Position numbers and translations under genes: made by a program. A stretch of DNA of 64,000 nucleotides from a virus. The number at the start of each line of letters is the position of its first letter. The stretch's first letter is position 1. The stretch spans positions 20,701-84,700 of IMG/VR virus record IMGVR_UViG_3300045017_000165; one strand, given 5' to 3'. Of the stretch, positions 31,618 through 41,113 are shown piece after piece. Below the pieces are notes generated by a model. The model saw only the letters and a program-made list of their open reading frames with translations. It ran no database searches and had not been told where the DNA came from.

Positions 31618-34560
31618 ATGGGAGACTCAGAGTTAGATTTCTTGCGCAGCGGCAGTACTGACGAGATAGAAGCCAACAGAGCAGCTTCCAGCGATGAGAG
31701 ACTCAAATCTCTAGCCTCTCCGGAACGCGTCGCCAAAGTCATGTCTGCGCTTAAATCTGATGGCTCCACCAAGACCCTGATCAAGGCTAAGAAGTCAGAC
31801 TGGATACGAGCCCTGATCCACCTCGACGGCACTAACTTCGACTTCTCTGGACGCGACTACCTAAAACAGATCTACGATACGAAGCATCCGCATAAACTTC
31901 TTGTCACGGGGCGTCAAGTTGAAAAATGTCAACCGATTTGGTCAACTATTCACAGAAGCGATGGGGGTGAATGTCGCATAGATGAACTTCGCTTAGGGGA
32001 CTCTATCTGCGCCATGAACCAAGGGGGCATACAGACGCAGGACTTAGTGTTAGCCTCGGAATCTAACGGTGTTAAAAAGTGTCTTCGCATAAAAACTCGC
32101 CTAGGCTCTACGATTGAAGCCACGTTGAACCACCCCTTTAGAAAACTACTCACATGGGAGCAAGCCTCTAAGCTAATAGTTGGTGATAAAATCGCGGCAC
32201 TTCGCAGTGTAGGGTTTTTTGGAGATAAGCAAAACGATCTGGCGATGGTAGTGGGGCTTCTGTTTGGAGATGGAAGCTTCAGTAATAGACTCATTTCGCT
32301 GGCGTGTGGAAGAGCTCCTATCCAAGAACTATTTGAAAAAGAGTATATTAGGCTAGAGGGTATAGCGCCTAAGTTTAGTTTGTCGAAAGGCTCAAAAACA
32401 CAACGAACCTATCGAGTCAGTGTCTCTACTAAAATAGCAGCGTGGTTCTACGAGCACGATCTGATAGGTATGGTTGCAAGCATCAAAAAATTACCCGCCG
32501 AAGTTTTCTCTTACAATAAAGAGTCAACTCGAAATTTGATCCGAGGACTTTGGGCAACCGATGGGCATTGTAAGAACGTAACCTCTTCTAAGATTGATTT
32601 AGTTTACTGCTCCACTAGCGAAACACTTGTTAGACAAGTGAGACTACTACTAAGAAAGTTTGGAGTTCTTACAACACTTCGTACGTATAAGCCCCAGCGA
32701 GGACAAAAAGCATTCCTTATTAGAGTAGTCACAAGAAAATCCATAGAAGCTTTTCATCGTGACATTGGACCTATTCCAGGAAAACCATTTAATATTCCCG
32801 GGTGTGAGAGCAATAGCAATTTAGATACTGTCCCTAGAGAAGTACTCAACGTATTGAAGAAAGCAAAACGTGCTGCCGGTTATGGTGGAAGATGGGGCAG
32901 CGACAACAAATGCTTTGAGCGAGATTCAGGGTTCCGGTTTAAGTCAAATTATTGCCCAACATTTGAGAAGTTAGCTGCTGCGCAGTCTTTACTCAACAAC
33001 TCTACCATACAGAAAATCTTAGACTCGGATATTATTTGGGATGAGATTGTATCAATAGAGGATTTAGGAGACCAACCAACGTGGTCTATTCAAACCCAAA
33101 CAGAAACCTACATCTCTGATTTCATAGTCCAGCACAACTCTACAATGCTAGCTAACGAGATCATCATCAACTCGGTAGTGATACCTTATTTCAAAACTCT
33201 ATATGTATCGCCGTCGCATGATCAGACAAGACAGTTCAGCAACGGAAAGTTAAAGCCGTGGATCGAAGATAGTCCTCTTATTCAAAAGTACTTCCAGAAC
33301 TCTGCCGTATCAAAGCAGGTCTTTGAGAAGAGCATGTCAAACGGATCGATTGCGTTTCTCAGGTCAGCTTTTCTAAGTGCTGACCGAACACGCGGAATAT
33401 CTAGTGATATACTATGCTTAGACGAGATTCAGGACATTTTAACGTCAAATATTCCGGTCATTACCGAGACCTTATCGCATAGTAAGTATGGGTATAAGAT
33501 TTTCGCCGGCACTCCAAAGACTCTTGAGAATCCTATCCAGCAGTACTTTGAGATGTCTAGCATGTGCGAGTGGTTGATACCTTGTTTCGCACACTCGCCG
33601 CCGCACTGGAACTACATTGATGAGAAGAGTATCGGTAAGGACGGACCAATATGCAATAAATGCGGCAAGCCCATTAATCCTGCTGAAGGTAAGTGGATAG
33701 CATTCAATGATAGTCGAGATATTCTGGGGTTTAGGATTTCACAGATCATGGTGCCATGGATCTATCAGAATCCTCTGAAGTGGAAGGAGTTCTTGTGGAA
33801 GTACGAGAACCTTTCGAGAGGTATTTTTTATAACGAGTGCTTGGGTATTTCTTTTGACTCCGCAAGCAAGCCTATTACGCGCACTGAATTAGTTGAGTGC
33901 TGCTCGTCAAAACATCCACTACGCTATCATCCAGACTCCTTCACGCATAAGATAGATCTATTTGCCGGTGTGGATTACGGCGAGGGCTCGGACGGAACAG
34001 AACGGGGTATGAAAGGAAGGATGAAGAACGCTTCGTACACAGTTCTTACGATAGGAGTCTATCTCGACCCAACACATTTTCATTACTTATTTATGAAACG
34101 GTATACTGGAGAGGAAGCTCTCCCAGCTAACTGTATCGGTGACATTATAAATATTGCACGAGCGTTTAGGGTTAAGTGCGTTGGTGCTGACTGGGGTCAT
34201 GGATGGGGAGTTAATGAGCAACTGGAAACTGCTCTCGGAAAGTCGCGCGTAATTAAGTTTCAATACGTAGGTAATCAGCGCGAGCGTAAAAAGTTTGATG
34301 AGATAGGACTTAAATACCAACTAGGTAGAACAGAAGTGATGACAGACTTTTTTACAGCAATAAAAAACCACCACATAATTTTTCCGGCATGGGAGTCAGT
34401 TAAAGATTATCTGTGTGATATCGAACATGTTTACGCCGAGTACGGAGATGGGGGAAGGTCGCTTAAGTATGACCACAAACCATCGGAGCCTGATGACGCG
34501 CTTCACTCAATGATTTATTGTAAGGAAGCCGCGGACAACTATTTCGGTAAGCACAAATAG
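31618..34560 (+). CDS. terL: Terminase large subunit (lambda GpA-like), intein-containing
   Basis: Walker A GRQVEK/ST split by intein; Walker B ILCLDEIQD; AGTP; Cys-rich segment; FYNECLG; nuclease AGVDYG and DDALHS. Confidence 0.9.
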   Translation: MGDSELDFLRSGSTDEIEANRAASSDERLKSLASPERVAKVMSALKSDGSTKTLIKAKKSDWIRALIHLDGTNFDFSGRDYLKQIYDTKHPHKLLVTGRQVEKCQPIWSTIHRSDGGECRIDELRLGDSICAMNQGGIQTQDLVLASESNGVKKCLRIKTRLGSTIEATLNHPFRKLLTWEQASKLIVGDKIAALRSVGFFGDKQNDLAMVVGLLFGDGSFSNRLISLACGRAPIQELFEKEYIRLEGIAPKFSLSKGSKTQRTYRVSVSTKIAAWFYEHDLIGMVASIKKLPAEVFSYNKESTRNLIRGLWATDGHCKNVTSSKIDLVYCSTSETLVRQVRLLLRKFGVLTTLRTYKPQRGQKAFLIRVVTRKSIEAFHRDIGPIPGKPFNIPGCESNSNLDTVPREVLNVLKKAKRAAGYGGRWGSDNKCFERDSGFRFKSNYCPTFEKLAAAQSLLNNSTIQKILDSDIIWDEIVSIEDLGDQPTWSIQTQTETYISDFIVQHNSTMLANEIIINSVVIPYFKTLYVSPSHDQTRQFSNGKLKPWIEDSPLIQKYFQNSAVSKQVFEKSMSNGSIAFLRSAFLSADRTRGISSDILCLDEIQDILTSNIPVITETLSHSKYGYKIFAGTPKTLENPIQQYFEMSSMCEWLIPCFAHSPPHWNYIDEKSIGKDGPICNKCGKPINPAEGKWIAFNDSRDILGFRISQIMVPWIYQNPLKWKEFLWKYENLSRGIFYNECLGISFDSASKPITRTELVECCSSKHPLRYHPDSFTHKIDLFAGVDYGEGSDGTERGMKGRMKNASYTVLTIGVYLDPTHFHYLFMKRYTGEEALPANCIGDIINIARAFRVKCVGADWGHGWGVNEQLETALGKSRVIKFQYVGNQRERKKFDEIGLKYQLGRTEVMTDFFTAIKNHHIIFPAWESVKDYLCDIEHVYAEYGDGGRSLKYDHKPSEPDDALHSMIYCKEAADNYFGKHK
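31927..33138 (+). mobile_element. Intein with LAGLIDADG endonuclease in terminase P-loop
   Basis: Starts CQPIWS, block B TLNHPF, VGLLFGDG and IRGLWATDG, ends VQHN/S; 404 aa. Confidence 0.92.
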
Positions 34561-35262: not shown

Positions 35263-35697
35263 TTACTCACTATCGGAAGACTCAGAGAGTTTAAGCTTCA
35301 TAAGTTCTTCGTCTAGTGTAGGAGCAGCTTCAAACCCTTCGATATTACCGCGCTTGTCGCAGCACTTACCTTTTGGTTTAGGTTCGTTTGGCGACAGCCC
35401 AACATATATACGAAGTGTTCGATACTTTTCCTCTGTATTGGCTTTATCTATGTTCAGATTTTTCAGTGCCTGTTCGAGCTCAGCTTTTTCAGCAATAAGA
35501 CGTTTTTCTCTCGCTTGAACTTCTTCAACGTCTATGTGAACAACGGCACCGCTTTTAGTGATAGCCATGCCAGGTTTAATGTGTTCTTCCTGCATAGCAT
35601 TTTCCATTGTGCGCATCTCTTTATACACTGGCTGAGATGCACACGCGCTTAGGATAACAAGAGACACTGACGCAACCATTAGTGTTATGTTTTTCAT
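35263..35697 (-). CDS. Predicted lipoprotein with coiled coil
   Basis: Signal peptide with lipobox LSAC; RBS AGGAGG. Confidence 0.7.
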   Translation of the reverse strand: MKNITLMVASVSLVILSACASQPVYKEMRTMENAMQEEHIKPGMAITKSGAVVHIDVEEVQAREKRLIAEKAELEQALKNLNIDKANTEEKYRTLRIYVGLSPNEPKPKGKCCDKRGNIEGFEAAPTLDEELMKLKLSESSDSE

Positions 35698-35817
35698 AAC
35701 ATCCTCCTATTTGTTTCAGTTACTTGTTTAATTAACTCGACCTGACTGTGTTTAAATCTTTAATTAAGACGTACCAACGAGCTGATGAACAGCAGTACTC
35801 GTGGGTACGTCTCATTT

Positions 35818-36070
35818 CACTACGACACGTCACTTGACATTACTTTAACCTCACGGAACTTTACCTTACTTCACATGACGGCACCACGACCATACTTTAC
35901 TCGACCATACGTTACCATGACTTTACTCTACTCAGCAGTACCATACGGTGCTTCACAGTACCCGCACGCCACTCGACTAAACGGTACCATACCTCCACAA
36001 CACAGAACGGCACAAAACCCCACCCCACATTACCAATACTGGACTGGACAGGACGACACATAACCCTTAC
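35818..36070 (-). repeat. 5-nt periodic GY-NNN array 1 (candidate guide-RNA array)
   Basis: 49 consecutive units (41 pentamers, 8 hexamers), all ending AC/GC on + strand; begins 27 nt after the Cas7-like stop. Confidence 0.85.
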
Positions 36071-36097
36071 TGAAAGCCATCCATGGCAAACAAGTAG

Positions 36098-36889
36098 TTA
36101 CGCAGATTCGATCGTGCACTTGAACTGTCCGTAGCCTGCGTTTCTCCACTGACCTAAGCCCGACACTCTTCCGTATGAGAAGAGTTTCTTTAGAGCTTCT
36201 TCAGTGAGCGGGGAATTCTCAAGCACGAGAAGTGTGAACTTGAGAGCGGCTCCGGATTCAATGCACTCGCTTTTAGCTACAGAGACGCGTGGACCTTGAG
36301 CTGTCATAGCTCTCAGTGAACGCTCACAGTACTTGATTGAGCCATCAGCACTCTTCATCACGTCTTTATCAAACGAGATGAATTGTTGCTCAATTGTTAC
36401 GTGTTGATTAATGATCGATTCCGTATAGCTTGCTGAGTTGAGGATCGTACCATTCTTTTTAGGAAGAGTACGAGCTACCGCTTCAGCAGCTGCTTTTAGG
36501 AATCCTTTAATCATGTGATCTCCGATACACGGCATTCCTGCCTTGTCGCGGAAGAACACTGTAACGCCTCGAAGTTCTTGCTCGTCGAGAGTTTCTTTTA
36601 AAGATTCGAGTTCACCTTTGATAGCAAGTTCGCGTTCTTCTGAGGTGAACTTTCTACCCACGAGAGTTTCAAGCTTATCGAGAAGCTTATCGGTTTCAAG
36701 TTTACCGCGCTCTTCGGTGATCTGTAGAGCTTCTAGGTACTTATTAATCTCAGCGTTGTAGCTACCTTTCTCTTGAATAAGCTTACGCTGCTTTTGAATG
36801 ATATGTTGTTCGTGAATCGACGGATCCGCCGGATTCGTGCCCAAAATGTCACGTGTGAATGACAAGACTACTTTATATTCTTTAAACAT
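36098..36889 (-). CDS. Stand-alone Cas7/RAMP-superfamily-like protein
   Basis: N-terminal strand YKVVLSFTRDILG; PCIGDHMIKGFLK (RAMP P.I.gs.lKG.lr-like); C-terminal Gly loop GLGQWRNAGYGQF. Confidence 0.8.
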   Translation of the reverse strand: MFKEYKVVLSFTRDILGTNPADPSIHEQHIIQKQRKLIQEKGSYNAEINKYLEALQITEERGKLETDKLLDKLETLVGRKFTSEERELAIKGELESLKETLDEQELRGVTVFFRDKAGMPCIGDHMIKGFLKAAAEAVARTLPKKNGTILNSASYTESIINQHVTIEQQFISFDKDVMKSADGSIKYCERSLRAMTAQGPRVSVAKSECIESGAALKFTLLVLENSPLTEEALKKLFSYGRVSGLGQWRNAGYGQFKCTIESA

Positions 36890-36910: not shown

Positions 36911-36950
36911 AGCGGTCACGCTCTACACTAGTTCATAGAGCGTGACCGCT
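36911..36950 (-). terminator. 15-bp perfect hairpin just upstream of the Cas7-like gene
   Basis: AGCGGTCACGCTCTA/TAGAGCGTGACCGCT, followed on minus by TTTATTT. Confidence 0.65.
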
Positions 36951-36961
36951 AGTTTTAGGTT

Positions 36962-37183
36962 TTACAGTACTTCTGGCTTAGATTTCTTGCCTGGCTTTTT
37001 ATTAGCTGCGGCAGGATTCTTAGCCGGTCTTCCACGCTTCTTTACGGTGCTTGGCGGCGTTGCATCGTCGTTAGCCATAAAGCGATCGTAAGCTTTCACA
37101 GCTACTGCGCCTGCTGCTGCGGAAGCGACGTAAGGAAGTGCTTTCTTAGTTACTGACCATACTGATGATAGAAAACCACTCAT
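36962..37183 (-). CDS. Small basic protein with AT-hook-like KRGRP motif
   Basis: 73 aa; RBS AGGAGG; KKRGRPAK. Confidence 0.65.
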   Translation of the reverse strand: MSGFLSSVWSVTKKALPYVASAAAGAVAVKAYDRFMANDDATPPSTVKKRGRPAKNPAAANKKPGKKSKPEVL

Positions 37184-37707: not shown

Positions 37708-38523
37708 TTACTCGGCATTTATTGAGATACCGGTAGTACCTGTTAACGAGGTCATAAGTGCAGGATCTGAACTAAAGTCTACACTCGTCACTGTAGCTCC
37801 ATAGAACCCCGTGGGGGCAGCTATGTCTACACAGGTAGATGAGTCGTAGGCTTTATAGGATCTAACAGTCCTTGACATTATGTCGTTAGTTAAAGCGACA
37901 TAATATACACCGTTATTGTTCAGCAGGACTTTGAGCATAGACCCAGCATCAGGATCATTATGACCTGAGGTTAGTCGGTTAGTCCTGACCACAGGAGTTC
38001 CGACGCACCCCAAACTAGGGTAGTAGATACGGGCACGAAGTCCGTACTCACTACCGAACTCGTTCTTATTTATGTTGACTACGAACCCACCAGTAGTATG
38101 CCAAAACGCAATGCCAACTGCGCTTTGACTAATTAGAGTTCCCATTACAACACCGAGCGAGTTCCTTACTACGAACCGAGGAGCAGCTGTACCAGCAGGA
38201 CCCTGGGCACCTTGAGCGCCCTGAGCACCTGTAGCTCCAACCGCACCCGCAGCACCTGTAGCTCCTGTGGCGCCTTGTGGTCCTTGAGGACCTTGAGCGC
38301 CATTAGATACTACAGCAGTGTTACCGCTTGGATCTGTGATACGAACGCCGTCTGACAGCTGAGTAATGGTGATTGAACCAACACTCATACTTTCACCGAC
38401 GCTAAGGTTAGTAGCCGCACCGTCCACTGGCATGACTGTTACGGATTCACTTACACAACCTGAGAGAACAGCTACTGAAGTTACAATCAAACTACCAACT
38501 GACATCATCATGAGCTTATTCAT
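37708..38523 (-). CDS. Predicted lipoprotein with collagen-like Gly-X-Y stretch
   Basis: Lipobox LSGC; about 12 G-X-Y triplets (GAQGPQGPQGATGATG...). Confidence 0.75.
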   Translation of the reverse strand: MNKLMMMSVGSLIVTSVAVLSGCVSESVTVMPVDGAATNLSVGESMSVGSITITQLSDGVRITDPSGNTAVVSNGAQGPQGPQGATGATGAAGAVGATGAQGAQGAQGPAGTAAPRFVVRNSLGVVMGTLISQSAVGIAFWHTTGGFVVNINKNEFGSEYGLRARIYYPSLGCVGTPVVRTNRLTSGHNDPDAGSMLKVLLNNNGVYYVALTNDIMSRTVRSYKAYDSSTCVDIAAPTGFYGATVTSVDFSSDPALMTSLTGTTGISINAE

Positions 38524-39909: not shown

Positions 39910-40203
39910 TTAGTTCATCCAATTCTTACTGGGTATGACGAATGTTTTAACAGCATTATCTGAATCATCGGGGGATGATTGTTCTACTGCTGTACTCGCC
40001 TTGGCTGTCAAAGATTTGAACGTAGTAACGATCTTACTGAAATCTTTACTTAGTTTTTTAAAATCCCTGAGAGTTTTATTACTCAGTACTAACTGGCGCT
40101 TCATTTCAATCGCCTGACTACGAAGTTTTAAAATCTGAAGCATCAGATAGATGCATGTCAGTCCTAAAACAACTAATGAGACGCTGAAAACTTTGTTATA
40201 CAT
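39910..40203 (-). CDS. Membrane-anchored coiled-coil protein
   Basis: ATG with RBS GGAAGG (MYNKVFSV...); N-terminal TM helix. Confidence 0.6.
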   Translation of the reverse strand: MYNKVFSVSLVVLGLTCIYLMLQILKLRSQAIEMKRQLVLSNKTLRDFKKLSKDFSKIVTTFKSLTAKASTAVEQSSPDDSDNAVKTFVIPSKNWMN

Positions 40204-40224
40204 ACGATTCCTTCCCAATAACAA

Positions 40225-40758
40225 GTAACGTTACCGTACCTTACCTTACGAAACCCCAACGCAACGCTACTGAACTCCACATAACTATACCACCACACAA
40301 CATAATCACCACTACCGCGCAACACATTACATTACCCCGCCAAGACAGTGCATTACTTCACCGTACTAAAGCTAAGCCCTACCGCACAGTACCCTACCCG
40401 AACCGGTTTCTACCGGAACACAACACTACTAAACTTAACTACACCATACCGTCACGTTACATGACGAAACTGCACTGACGCAGTACATTGCTTTACCGAG
40501 ACTTTACTACACTCAACGACACTTCACGCTACCCAACCGTGACTTTACTGCACCCTACTACACATCACGATACCTCACTGTGGCTTTACCCCACGACACA
40601 CCACCCAATCAAACATCACCATACCGCACGGGACTCTACCGAGACGCTGCCATGCTGGACGTTACTTTGCCATAGCAATACTGCACAACACGTTACCCGA
40701 CCTTACCATAGCATCACCTTACAACACGAGACCTTGCGTCACTGTAGCATCGCAGTAC
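40225..40758 (-). repeat. 5-nt periodic GY-NNN array 2 (candidate guide-RNA array)
   Basis: About 100 units, nearly all ending AC/GC on + strand, 16 hexamers; fills the whole intergenic space. Confidence 0.85.
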
Positions 40759-41009
40759 TAATGTGCAGTATCGTTACGGACTTCGTCTGAACTAAACGAT
40801 GTCGCCGCAACGTAATTATTTTTTTCCTGTGGTGGATAAACAAGAAAAACCGTCCTGCCGTTTAGTACGACTGGAAGCATAGTGTGTATTCCTGTCGTAG
40901 CTACTTTGGAAGATTCTTCCAAAATATCCGCAAGAGCTCTTAGCTGCTCTGGCGAAGTTTCAAATAATTGCCCGTGTACAACTTGTCCCGTAGTTTTAAA
41001 TTTTTCCAC
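40758..41009 (-). CDS. Hypothetical protein directly upstream of array 2
   Basis: 83 aa; GTG start with RBS GGGGAG. Confidence 0.55.
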   Translation of the reverse strand: MEKFKTTGQVVHGQLFETSPEQLRALADILEESSKVATTGIHTMLPVVLNGRTVFLVYPPQEKNNYVAATSFSSDEVRNDTAH

Positions 41010-41113
41010 GACAAATCTCCCCTAAATAAAAAAGGGAGCCGTCTAAAAGATAGACGACTCCCAAGTTGGTTTTCACTACTTTAAACTTATACCATTTAAA
41101 TTAATGGTTTAGT

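Follow-up and report, generated by a model that had tools for sequence, protein, structure and literature searches.

Array 2, a continuous run of five-base units on the minus strand of the window (the whole 64-kb stretch analysed; Table 1), very probably belongs to a VIPR system as the second of its guide RNA (vrRNA) arrays, judging by homology with published systems. VIPR is a phage-borne, CRISPR-related, RNA-guided DNA silencer, the effector of which, Vipr, is a minimal phage-encoded RAMP (bioRxiv 10.64898/2026.04.26.720920; structural companion, 10.64898/2026.04.26.720927). In the systems described, vrRNAs comprise 9–16 YNNGG repeats and a 3' tail; one Vipr protomer sits on each pentanucleotide repeat, with the GGY bases flipped into the protein, and the NN bases pair with double-stranded DNA, every third target base being skipped (10.64898/2026.04.26.720920, 10.64898/2026.04.26.720927). 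The outcome is a programmable transcriptional silencing of competing phages and satellites, and expression of vrRNAs and their co-purification with Vipr have been demonstrated for homologues (10.64898/2026.04.26.720920, 10.64898/2026.04.26.720927).

As a class of RNA-guided DNA silencers, these systems have been recognised only very recently, and their origin has been proposed to precede that of CRISPR. Because the locus matches VIPR systems published in 2026, its kind is no longer new, and the VIPR concept is unchanged by it; what the locus provides is numbers for a tail-less, hexamer-punctuated array architecture. Some clade-specific features, namely the GY motif, the lack of 3' tails, the recurring G-ending hexamer, and the position of array 2 away from vipr, merit a specialist's look.

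Table 1. Coordinates of array 2 and associated features (positions in the window)
Feature	Position	Strand	Description
Array 2, candidate VIPR vrRNA array	40225..40758	-	104 units of GY+NNN, without 3' tail
Array 1	35822..36064	-	48 units, all GY (46 GT), 6 hexamers; begins ~34 nt past the vipr stop codon
Hairpin after array 1	35765..35814	-	Strong, about -26 kcal/mol for a 76-nt stretch
Junction motif GTAAA-GTCNNG-GT	40495-40507, 40536-40548 (array 2), 35914-35926 (array 1)	-	Each copy a pentamer, then a hexamer
vipr gene	36098..36889	-	263-aa RAMP/Cas7-like protein; G-loop GLGQWRNAGYG
83-aa ORF (ORF83)	40758..41009	-	No known family; final stop-codon base doubles as the opening G of array 2
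ORF97 (97 aa from ATG at 40203)	39910..40203	-	Predicted hydrophobic N-terminus; RBS-like GGAAGGAA
Terminator-like hairpin	41034..41062	-	12 pairs and a T run; upstream of the 83-aa ORF
Terminator-like hairpin	36911..36950	-	17 pairs; directly upstream of vipr
GGTATAAG box	41086-41093	-	Between the stop of a 106-aa ORF and the terminator-like hairpin; upstream of the array 2 unit

Structure of Array 2

The minus strand of array 2 is G/T-rich (192 G, 164 T, 108 A, and 70 C). Its lag-5 identity is 0.48, versus about 0.19–0.26 at lags 1–4 and 6, and the spectral peak lies at 5.13 nt for all four bases. The tract was parsed by dynamic programming, with G-Y anchors chained at steps of 5 and steps of 6 or 4 penalised. 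The resulting G anchors run from 40758 to 40229, and the units include 87 pentamers, 15 hexamers, and 1 tetramer; the chain score of 73.5 compares with a maximum of 5–7 in 10 simulated first-order Markov genomes of the same size. A first-pass annotation of this DNA had described about 100 GY-NNN units on the minus strand, starting at the stop of an unrelated 83-aa ORF and ending at the RBS of the next gene, and all of this holds: 100 of the 104 parsed units begin GY (84 GT and 16 GC), the first opens with the G that ends the TAG stop codon of ORF83, and the last ends ~20 nt ahead of the ATG of ORF97, followed directly by the RBS-like element. The only correction to that observation concerns the hexamers, 16 of which had been reported where the parse gives 15 and the tetramer.

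Folding of the array 2 RNA gave z = +1.16 relative to shuffles, so there is no stable structure beyond that of shuffled sequences, and an Rfam search returned no matching family. Array 2 lacks a promoter, tail, or terminator belonging to itself, and it has no counterpart of the hairpin that adjoins array 1, which could be either a terminator or a 3' cap.

The plus strand carries a 100-aa open frame here (40488-40790), and translation of either this frame or some minus-strand product would be an alternative reading of the tract. We give it almost no credence: a 5-nt period is incompatible with codon structure, the plus-strand frame is an expected by-product of an AC-rich strand and the same artefact is seen at array 1, and no minus-strand ORF spans array 2, the flanking genes of which all lie on the minus strand.

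Array 1 and the Record-Wide Scan

A sliding scan of the window detected two 5-nt tracts only (35776-36076 and 40201-40801), which correspond to the two arrays. The same holds for the whole virus record (84.7 kb, estimated to be about 54% complete), where arrays 1 and 2 are the only chains and simulated genomes (n = 10) score 7 at most; the suggestion that more arrays might exist elsewhere in the genome thus found no support in this record. Array 1, with a chain score of 40.8 in the same parse, has in common with array 2 its unit type, its hexamer signature, and the junction motif. The motif had been reported as common to both arrays at 40495, 40536, and 35914; these positions are exact, the three copies are absent elsewhere in the record, and their number exceeds that in unit-shuffled arrays (p = 0.0002).

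The Vipr Protein

The AlphaFold (AF2) model of the 263-aa protein (pLDDT 76) shows a beta-hairpin thumb at approximately residues 187–210 and a long helical insertion at approximately residues 22–107. The match to Pfam RAMP is weak (E = 0.03); at the level of the model, Foldseek finds Csm3, Cmr4, and type VII Cas7 (E = 3e-7), and VIA-align superposes it on Csm3 with Z = 12.3 and an rmsd of 3.6 Å over 152 residues. Searching the PDB with hmmsearch also revealed sequence similarity between its G-loop and that of type VII Cas7 (E = 1.8e-4). By its modelled fold, the protein is therefore predicted to be a minimal RAMP (RRM core, glycine-rich loop, and thumb), and it is encoded outside a CRISPR-Cas locus: none of the ten neighbouring ORFs examined is a cas gene, and a search of the record for Vipr homologues returned this protein as the only one and the only RAMP.

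Sequence comparison indicates that the protein is a remote homologue of the characterised Vipr of Escherichia phage SUSP1 (~21% identity), the locus of which was taken from NC_028808.2 (vipr = agp039, 195 aa). With hhalign, the family alignment A2, which includes ~200-aa family members, matched SUSP1 Vipr over its full length (93.8%, E = 1.7e-7, 178 aligned columns), and the close-family alignment alone matched only the C-terminal 51 residues around the G-loop (72.5%, E = 3.2e-5). The A1 family profile has a single match in the SUSP1 genome, inside the vipr gene (E = 0.0054). SUSP1 Vipr (structure 36pp) was not recovered at E <= 1 when the PDB was searched with the family by hmmsearch.

Nine SUSP1 residues (H17, K33, E71, M72, R138, C173, D177, W178, and R179) agree with the published numbering, and the published T175 is V175 in NC_028808.2. 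W178 and R179, which hold G2 and Y3, are kept in the 263-aa protein as W248 and R249; H17 and D177, which hold G1, are replaced by T18 and Q247. The family shares this state, GxGQWR being present in 94 of the 115 representatives with a GxGxWx G-loop motif and D-W-R in none. The arrays show a parallel change: the base preceding G in family pentamers is A, C, G, or T at frequencies of 0.34, 0.16, 0.28, and 0.23, i.e., G1 is not conserved. We infer from these alignments that loss of the G1-contacting residues may be connected to loss of the first G in the arrays, which read GY instead of GGY. Here the RNA motif and the protein contacts (H17 to T, D177 to Q) differ together in nature, which offers a convenient means of testing how repeats are read by Vipr.

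The Gene–Array Family

The Vipr family comprises at least 274 close proteins, 367 IMG/VR loci (viral contigs), and 1,602 representative protein clusters at E <= 0.001, and the present locus is a well-delimited example from this large uncultured lake-phage clade. Many members are ~200 aa long and lack the helical insertion of residues 22–107. Megablast of phage records found no close relatives of the phage, and a metagenome scan gave relatives at 48–60% identity only.

A 5-nt-periodic tract was present in 78 of the 80 related viral loci fetched. Of the 50 strong arrays (score >= 15), all but one are found no more than 1.5 kb from the gene (42 downstream and 7 upstream; median distance, 51 nt). 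The unit is of the GT type in close relatives and mostly GC(A) in distant ones. All arrays with at least 10 GT units, from ~19 independent loci, score best on the gene strand, which points to an RNA and not to a DNA site. The first-pass annotation had proposed a trans-acting guide repertoire for the Cas7-like protein, and this proposal gains support from the RAMP/Cas7 fold, the homology to SUSP1 Vipr, and a family whose genes nearly always have 5-nt arrays beside them on the same strand.

Comparison of the related loci revealed no proteins common to them other than Vipr, no conserved vap-like accessory gene, and no homologue of vap1. Six vap genes have been described for seven VIPR types, with an accessory vap in types II–VII (10.64898/2026.04.26.720920), from which we infer that one type has none.

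The longest array in the family (L049, 8568-9899; also in L050) has 259 units over 1.3 kb, mostly of the GC type and including 44 hexamers, and belongs to a phage of 157–172 kb.

Variation of the Arrays

Comparison among related phages, proposed earlier as a gauge of turnover, showed that the arrays rearrange quickly while their surroundings do not. In seven phages with vipr genes 88–97% identical, the flanks are 90–98% identical, and the intervening array region has undergone deletion, duplication, or reshuffling. These arrays (L018, L021, L036, L037, L039, L044, and L057) lie ~30–700 nt downstream of the gene, range in length from ~260 to 790 nt, and show off-diagonal matches, a pattern that implies frequent internal duplication and deletion between conserved flanks. 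The earlier description of the arrays as expandable is accordingly upheld as far as fast rearrangement among related phages goes, but no acquisition machinery backs it.

The variable positions of the arrays have high entropy and differ between strains. In other lake-water samples, six substitutions were found in the two arrays, all at variable positions, versus two in ~2.4 kb of covered flank (Fisher p = 0.003), a contrast that is weak evidence because depth was only 2–7.

Hexamers

Successive hexamers in array 2 are 36, 36, 31, 61, 41, 41, 21, 26, 36, 16, 31, 26, 50, and 36 nt apart, so that the spacings of 31, 36, and 41 nt noted in the first pass all recur. That the spacings take the form 5n+1 is a trivial consequence of the parse; their regularity does not follow from it (coefficient of variation 0.33, permutation p = 5e-5, for array 2; 0.16, p = 0.002, for array 1). 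Nor are the hexamers merely slipped pentamers. A pyrimidine occupies position 3 in 15 of the 21 hexamers but in only 35 of the 130 pentamers (p = 2e-4), position 6 of the hexamers holds G or A, and in array 2 a GC start is commoner among hexamers (6/15 versus 10/88 pentamers, p = 0.012).

The same signature extends over 32 non-redundant family arrays (591 hexamers and 3,023 pentamers), where 67% of hexamer-to-hexamer gaps measure 5, 6, or 7 units, versus 20% after shuffling, and 84% of hexamers have G as their sixth base. A G at this position recreates GGY. We read the hexamers as boundaries of short guides of ~26–41 nt. If they do bound guides, the published two-base rule would leave each guide specifying just 12–16 bases, a low specificity.

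A more elaborate reading, which we regard as possible but doubtful, is that the Q-W-R G-loop clade follows a DNA reading rule unlike that of SUSP1, in which, with the G1 pocket lost, each unit reads with its full set of three variable bases or another skip applies. The G-ending hexamers every 5–7 units may cut the array into guides of about one helical turn (about six protomers), and array 2 would then amount to 16–17 mini-guides freed from inside an mRNA without tails or ribozymes.

The mean period is 5.13–5.20 in every family array, so that two units span 10.3–10.4 bp, near the B-DNA repeat, as would suit a tract acting as DNA, i.e., a periodic protein-binding or structural element. This is nevertheless very unlikely: the motif is confined to one strand, invariably that of the gene, the partner protein has an RNA-binding RAMP fold and a homologue that has been observed in complex with such RNA, and SUSP1 arrays reach at least 12 units without hexamers. 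TRAP-like, DNA-helical-phase, and coding readings of the tract were set aside.

Comparison with Known Systems

The nearest characterised relative is the type II VIPR system of SUSP1 (agp039, vap1, and four vrRNAs). Both phages encode a single small RAMP with an RRM core, a thumb, and a G-loop with a W-R pair, and both carry pentanucleotide arrays on either side of vipr and in the same orientation as the gene, with no CRISPR array and no other cas genes. The protein described here is longer (263 versus 195 aa), with a longer helical insertion, vap1 has no homologue here, and array 2 runs continuously through 104 units, whereas SUSP1 vrRNAs have 9–16 repeats with a leader before and a pseudoknot tail after. 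The motif also differs, being GY+NNN here and GGY+NN in SUSP1, and the canonical GGY/NN consensus is absent. Alternative YNNNG, NNNGG, and NNNNG repeats are, however, given in the published methods, where "a related consensus" is admitted (10.64898/2026.04.26.720920); since YNNNG is among them, the missing GGY/NN does not exclude membership in VIPR. Non-canonical motifs such as WGT/NN have also been reported (10.64898/2026.10.21.760802).

"Staggered" arrays, in which adjacent vrRNAs derive from positions overlapping by 1 nt, are presented in fig. S18 of the first account and do not figure among the architectures stated to be confirmed by sRNA-seq (10.64898/2026.04.26.720920). As described there, staggered and non-canonical arrays resemble array 2 in a consensus cut to G-Y, the lack of tails, and adjacent guides offset by one base, and theirs is most likely the published description that fits array 2 best. 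Within the available parts of the published accounts, the hexamer spacing of 5–7 units, the predominance of G as the sixth base (84% of hexamers), and array lengths reaching 259 units appear to be new.

Backbone proteins of class 1 CRISPR systems (Csm3, Cmr4, and type VII Cas7) resemble the protein in fold (Z 10–12), in the G-loop similarity to type VII Cas7, and in forming, as predicted for it too, a filament on guide RNA from which a thumb flips bases periodically. Their period, however, is 6 nt and sequence-independent, whereas that of the present system is 5 nt with presumed base-specific recognition. CRISPR-Cas repeats are about 25–40 nt long, whereas the period here is 5 nt and not 60–79 nt, with no repeat-spacer array, and unlike class 1 systems the locus has no Cas5, Cas6, Cas10, or Cas11 and no adaptation genes.

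Genomic Context of Array 2

Array 2 lies 3.3 kb upstream of vipr on the same strand, with seven ORFs between them, a distance atypical for the family. Two syntenic relatives of 175 kb (L004 and L005) retain the gene order polymerase – variable genes – vipr – array – terminase, and in them every array is downstream of vipr. The two terminator-like hairpins at 41034-41062 and 36911-36950 suggest a likely transcription unit of ORF83, array 2, and ORF97 onwards, the former hairpin likely marking where it starts. ORF83 has no relatives in IMG/VR or the protein atlas. The sequencing runs that contain the sequence are lake-water DNA runs, with no RNA run listed.

Its embedding between two ORFs, with one stop codon overlapped and an RBS at the far end, could mean that array 2 is bound by Vipr without supplying guides, as a scaffold, a storage or titration RNA, a decoy, or a cis-regulator that, for example, covers the ORF83–ORF97 mRNA. 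The absence of a tail would suit such a role, as would the decoy-type use of vrRNAs published for satellites. We consider it unlikely, since array 2 matches array 1, which has the canonical position, in unit type, hexamer signature, and junction motif; its variable positions are high-entropy and strain-variable, as expected for guides; and arrays elsewhere are not accompanied by its flanking ORFs.

The array had been called an orphan, which is apt insofar as it is detached from vipr but holds only in a relative sense with the sole vipr of the record so near. Solo or orphan vrRNA arrays are known from VIPR-null phages and satellites, where they borrow Vipr in trans, with decoy-type use in satellites (bioRxiv 10.64898/2026.10.15.759431). 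Array 2 resembles them in being detached and in presumably acting in trans; the definition of such arrays requires that Vipr be absent from the contig or from the surrounding 20 kb, whereas here vipr lies well inside that limit and in the same orientation. Array 2 might still serve another effector, whether a further Vipr whose gene lies in the ~46% of the genome absent from the record or one supplied by a co-infecting phage, in which case it would be a true solo array that hijacks or misdirects a rival. The reported borrowing in trans, the incompleteness of the record, and the larger share of GC units in array 2 (16/104 versus 2/48 in array 1) are compatible with this reading, which we judge improbable in view of the single Vipr homologue in the record and of a junction motif unique to arrays 1 and 2.

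Proposed Mechanism and Targets

On the guide reading of array 2, which we prefer, homology and the literature point to the following sequence of events. The array would be transcribed on the minus strand, probably within a unit comprising ORF83, the array, and ORF97 and starting past the hairpin at 41034-41062. Its RNA would be bound by the single Vipr of the phage, one protomer per five-base unit, each protomer holding the fixed G-Y in its G-loop/thumb pocket and leaving the variable bases exposed. The exposed bases would read the double-stranded DNA of a competitor (another phage, a satellite, or genes of the host) non-contiguously and bring about silencing. The motif of this clade is reduced from GGY to GY, which fits the replacement of both G1-holding residues of SUSP1 Vipr, and in place of 3' tails, a G-ending hexamer every 5–7 units, recreating GGY, may serve as the guide boundary at which the RNA is processed.

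The gapped target search that the first-pass annotation had recommended yielded no targets, either locally or in IMG/VR. Seven pairing rules applied to 1.1 Mb of related loci and the phage's own genome produced no excess over shuffled guides, the only perfect matches being those of arrays against themselves, and four exact gapped patterns had 0 matches in IMG/VR. Decoding the guides into peptides gave nothing statistically defensible.

Other Features of the Locus

Several neighbouring genes on the minus strand deserve mention. A 73-aa basic protein (36962-37183), encoded upstream of vipr behind the 17-bp terminator-like hairpin, has a weak AT-hook match (KKRGRPAKNP; Pfam E = 0.014) and could be a DNA-binding accessory, although the other loci do not share it. 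The region separating array 2 from vipr encodes a 271-aa protein (37708-38523) that combines a signal of the lipoprotein type (…LSGC) with a collagen-like run of G-X-Y. Directly after array 1 lies the gene for a 144-aa lipoprotein (35263-35697) with the lipobox LSAC and a weak PHROG lysis match, which may be a spanin-type lysis gene.

On the plus strand, the terminase large subunit (980 aa, 31618-34560) appears to be interrupted by an intein-like insertion: it contains a block with a Cys start, a homing-endonuclease-like middle, and an ...HNS end, and the relatives L004–L006 align with it in two pieces. The plus-strand open frames opposite array 1 (92 aa, 35785-36063) and array 2 (the 100-aa frame mentioned above) are easily mis-annotated as genes.
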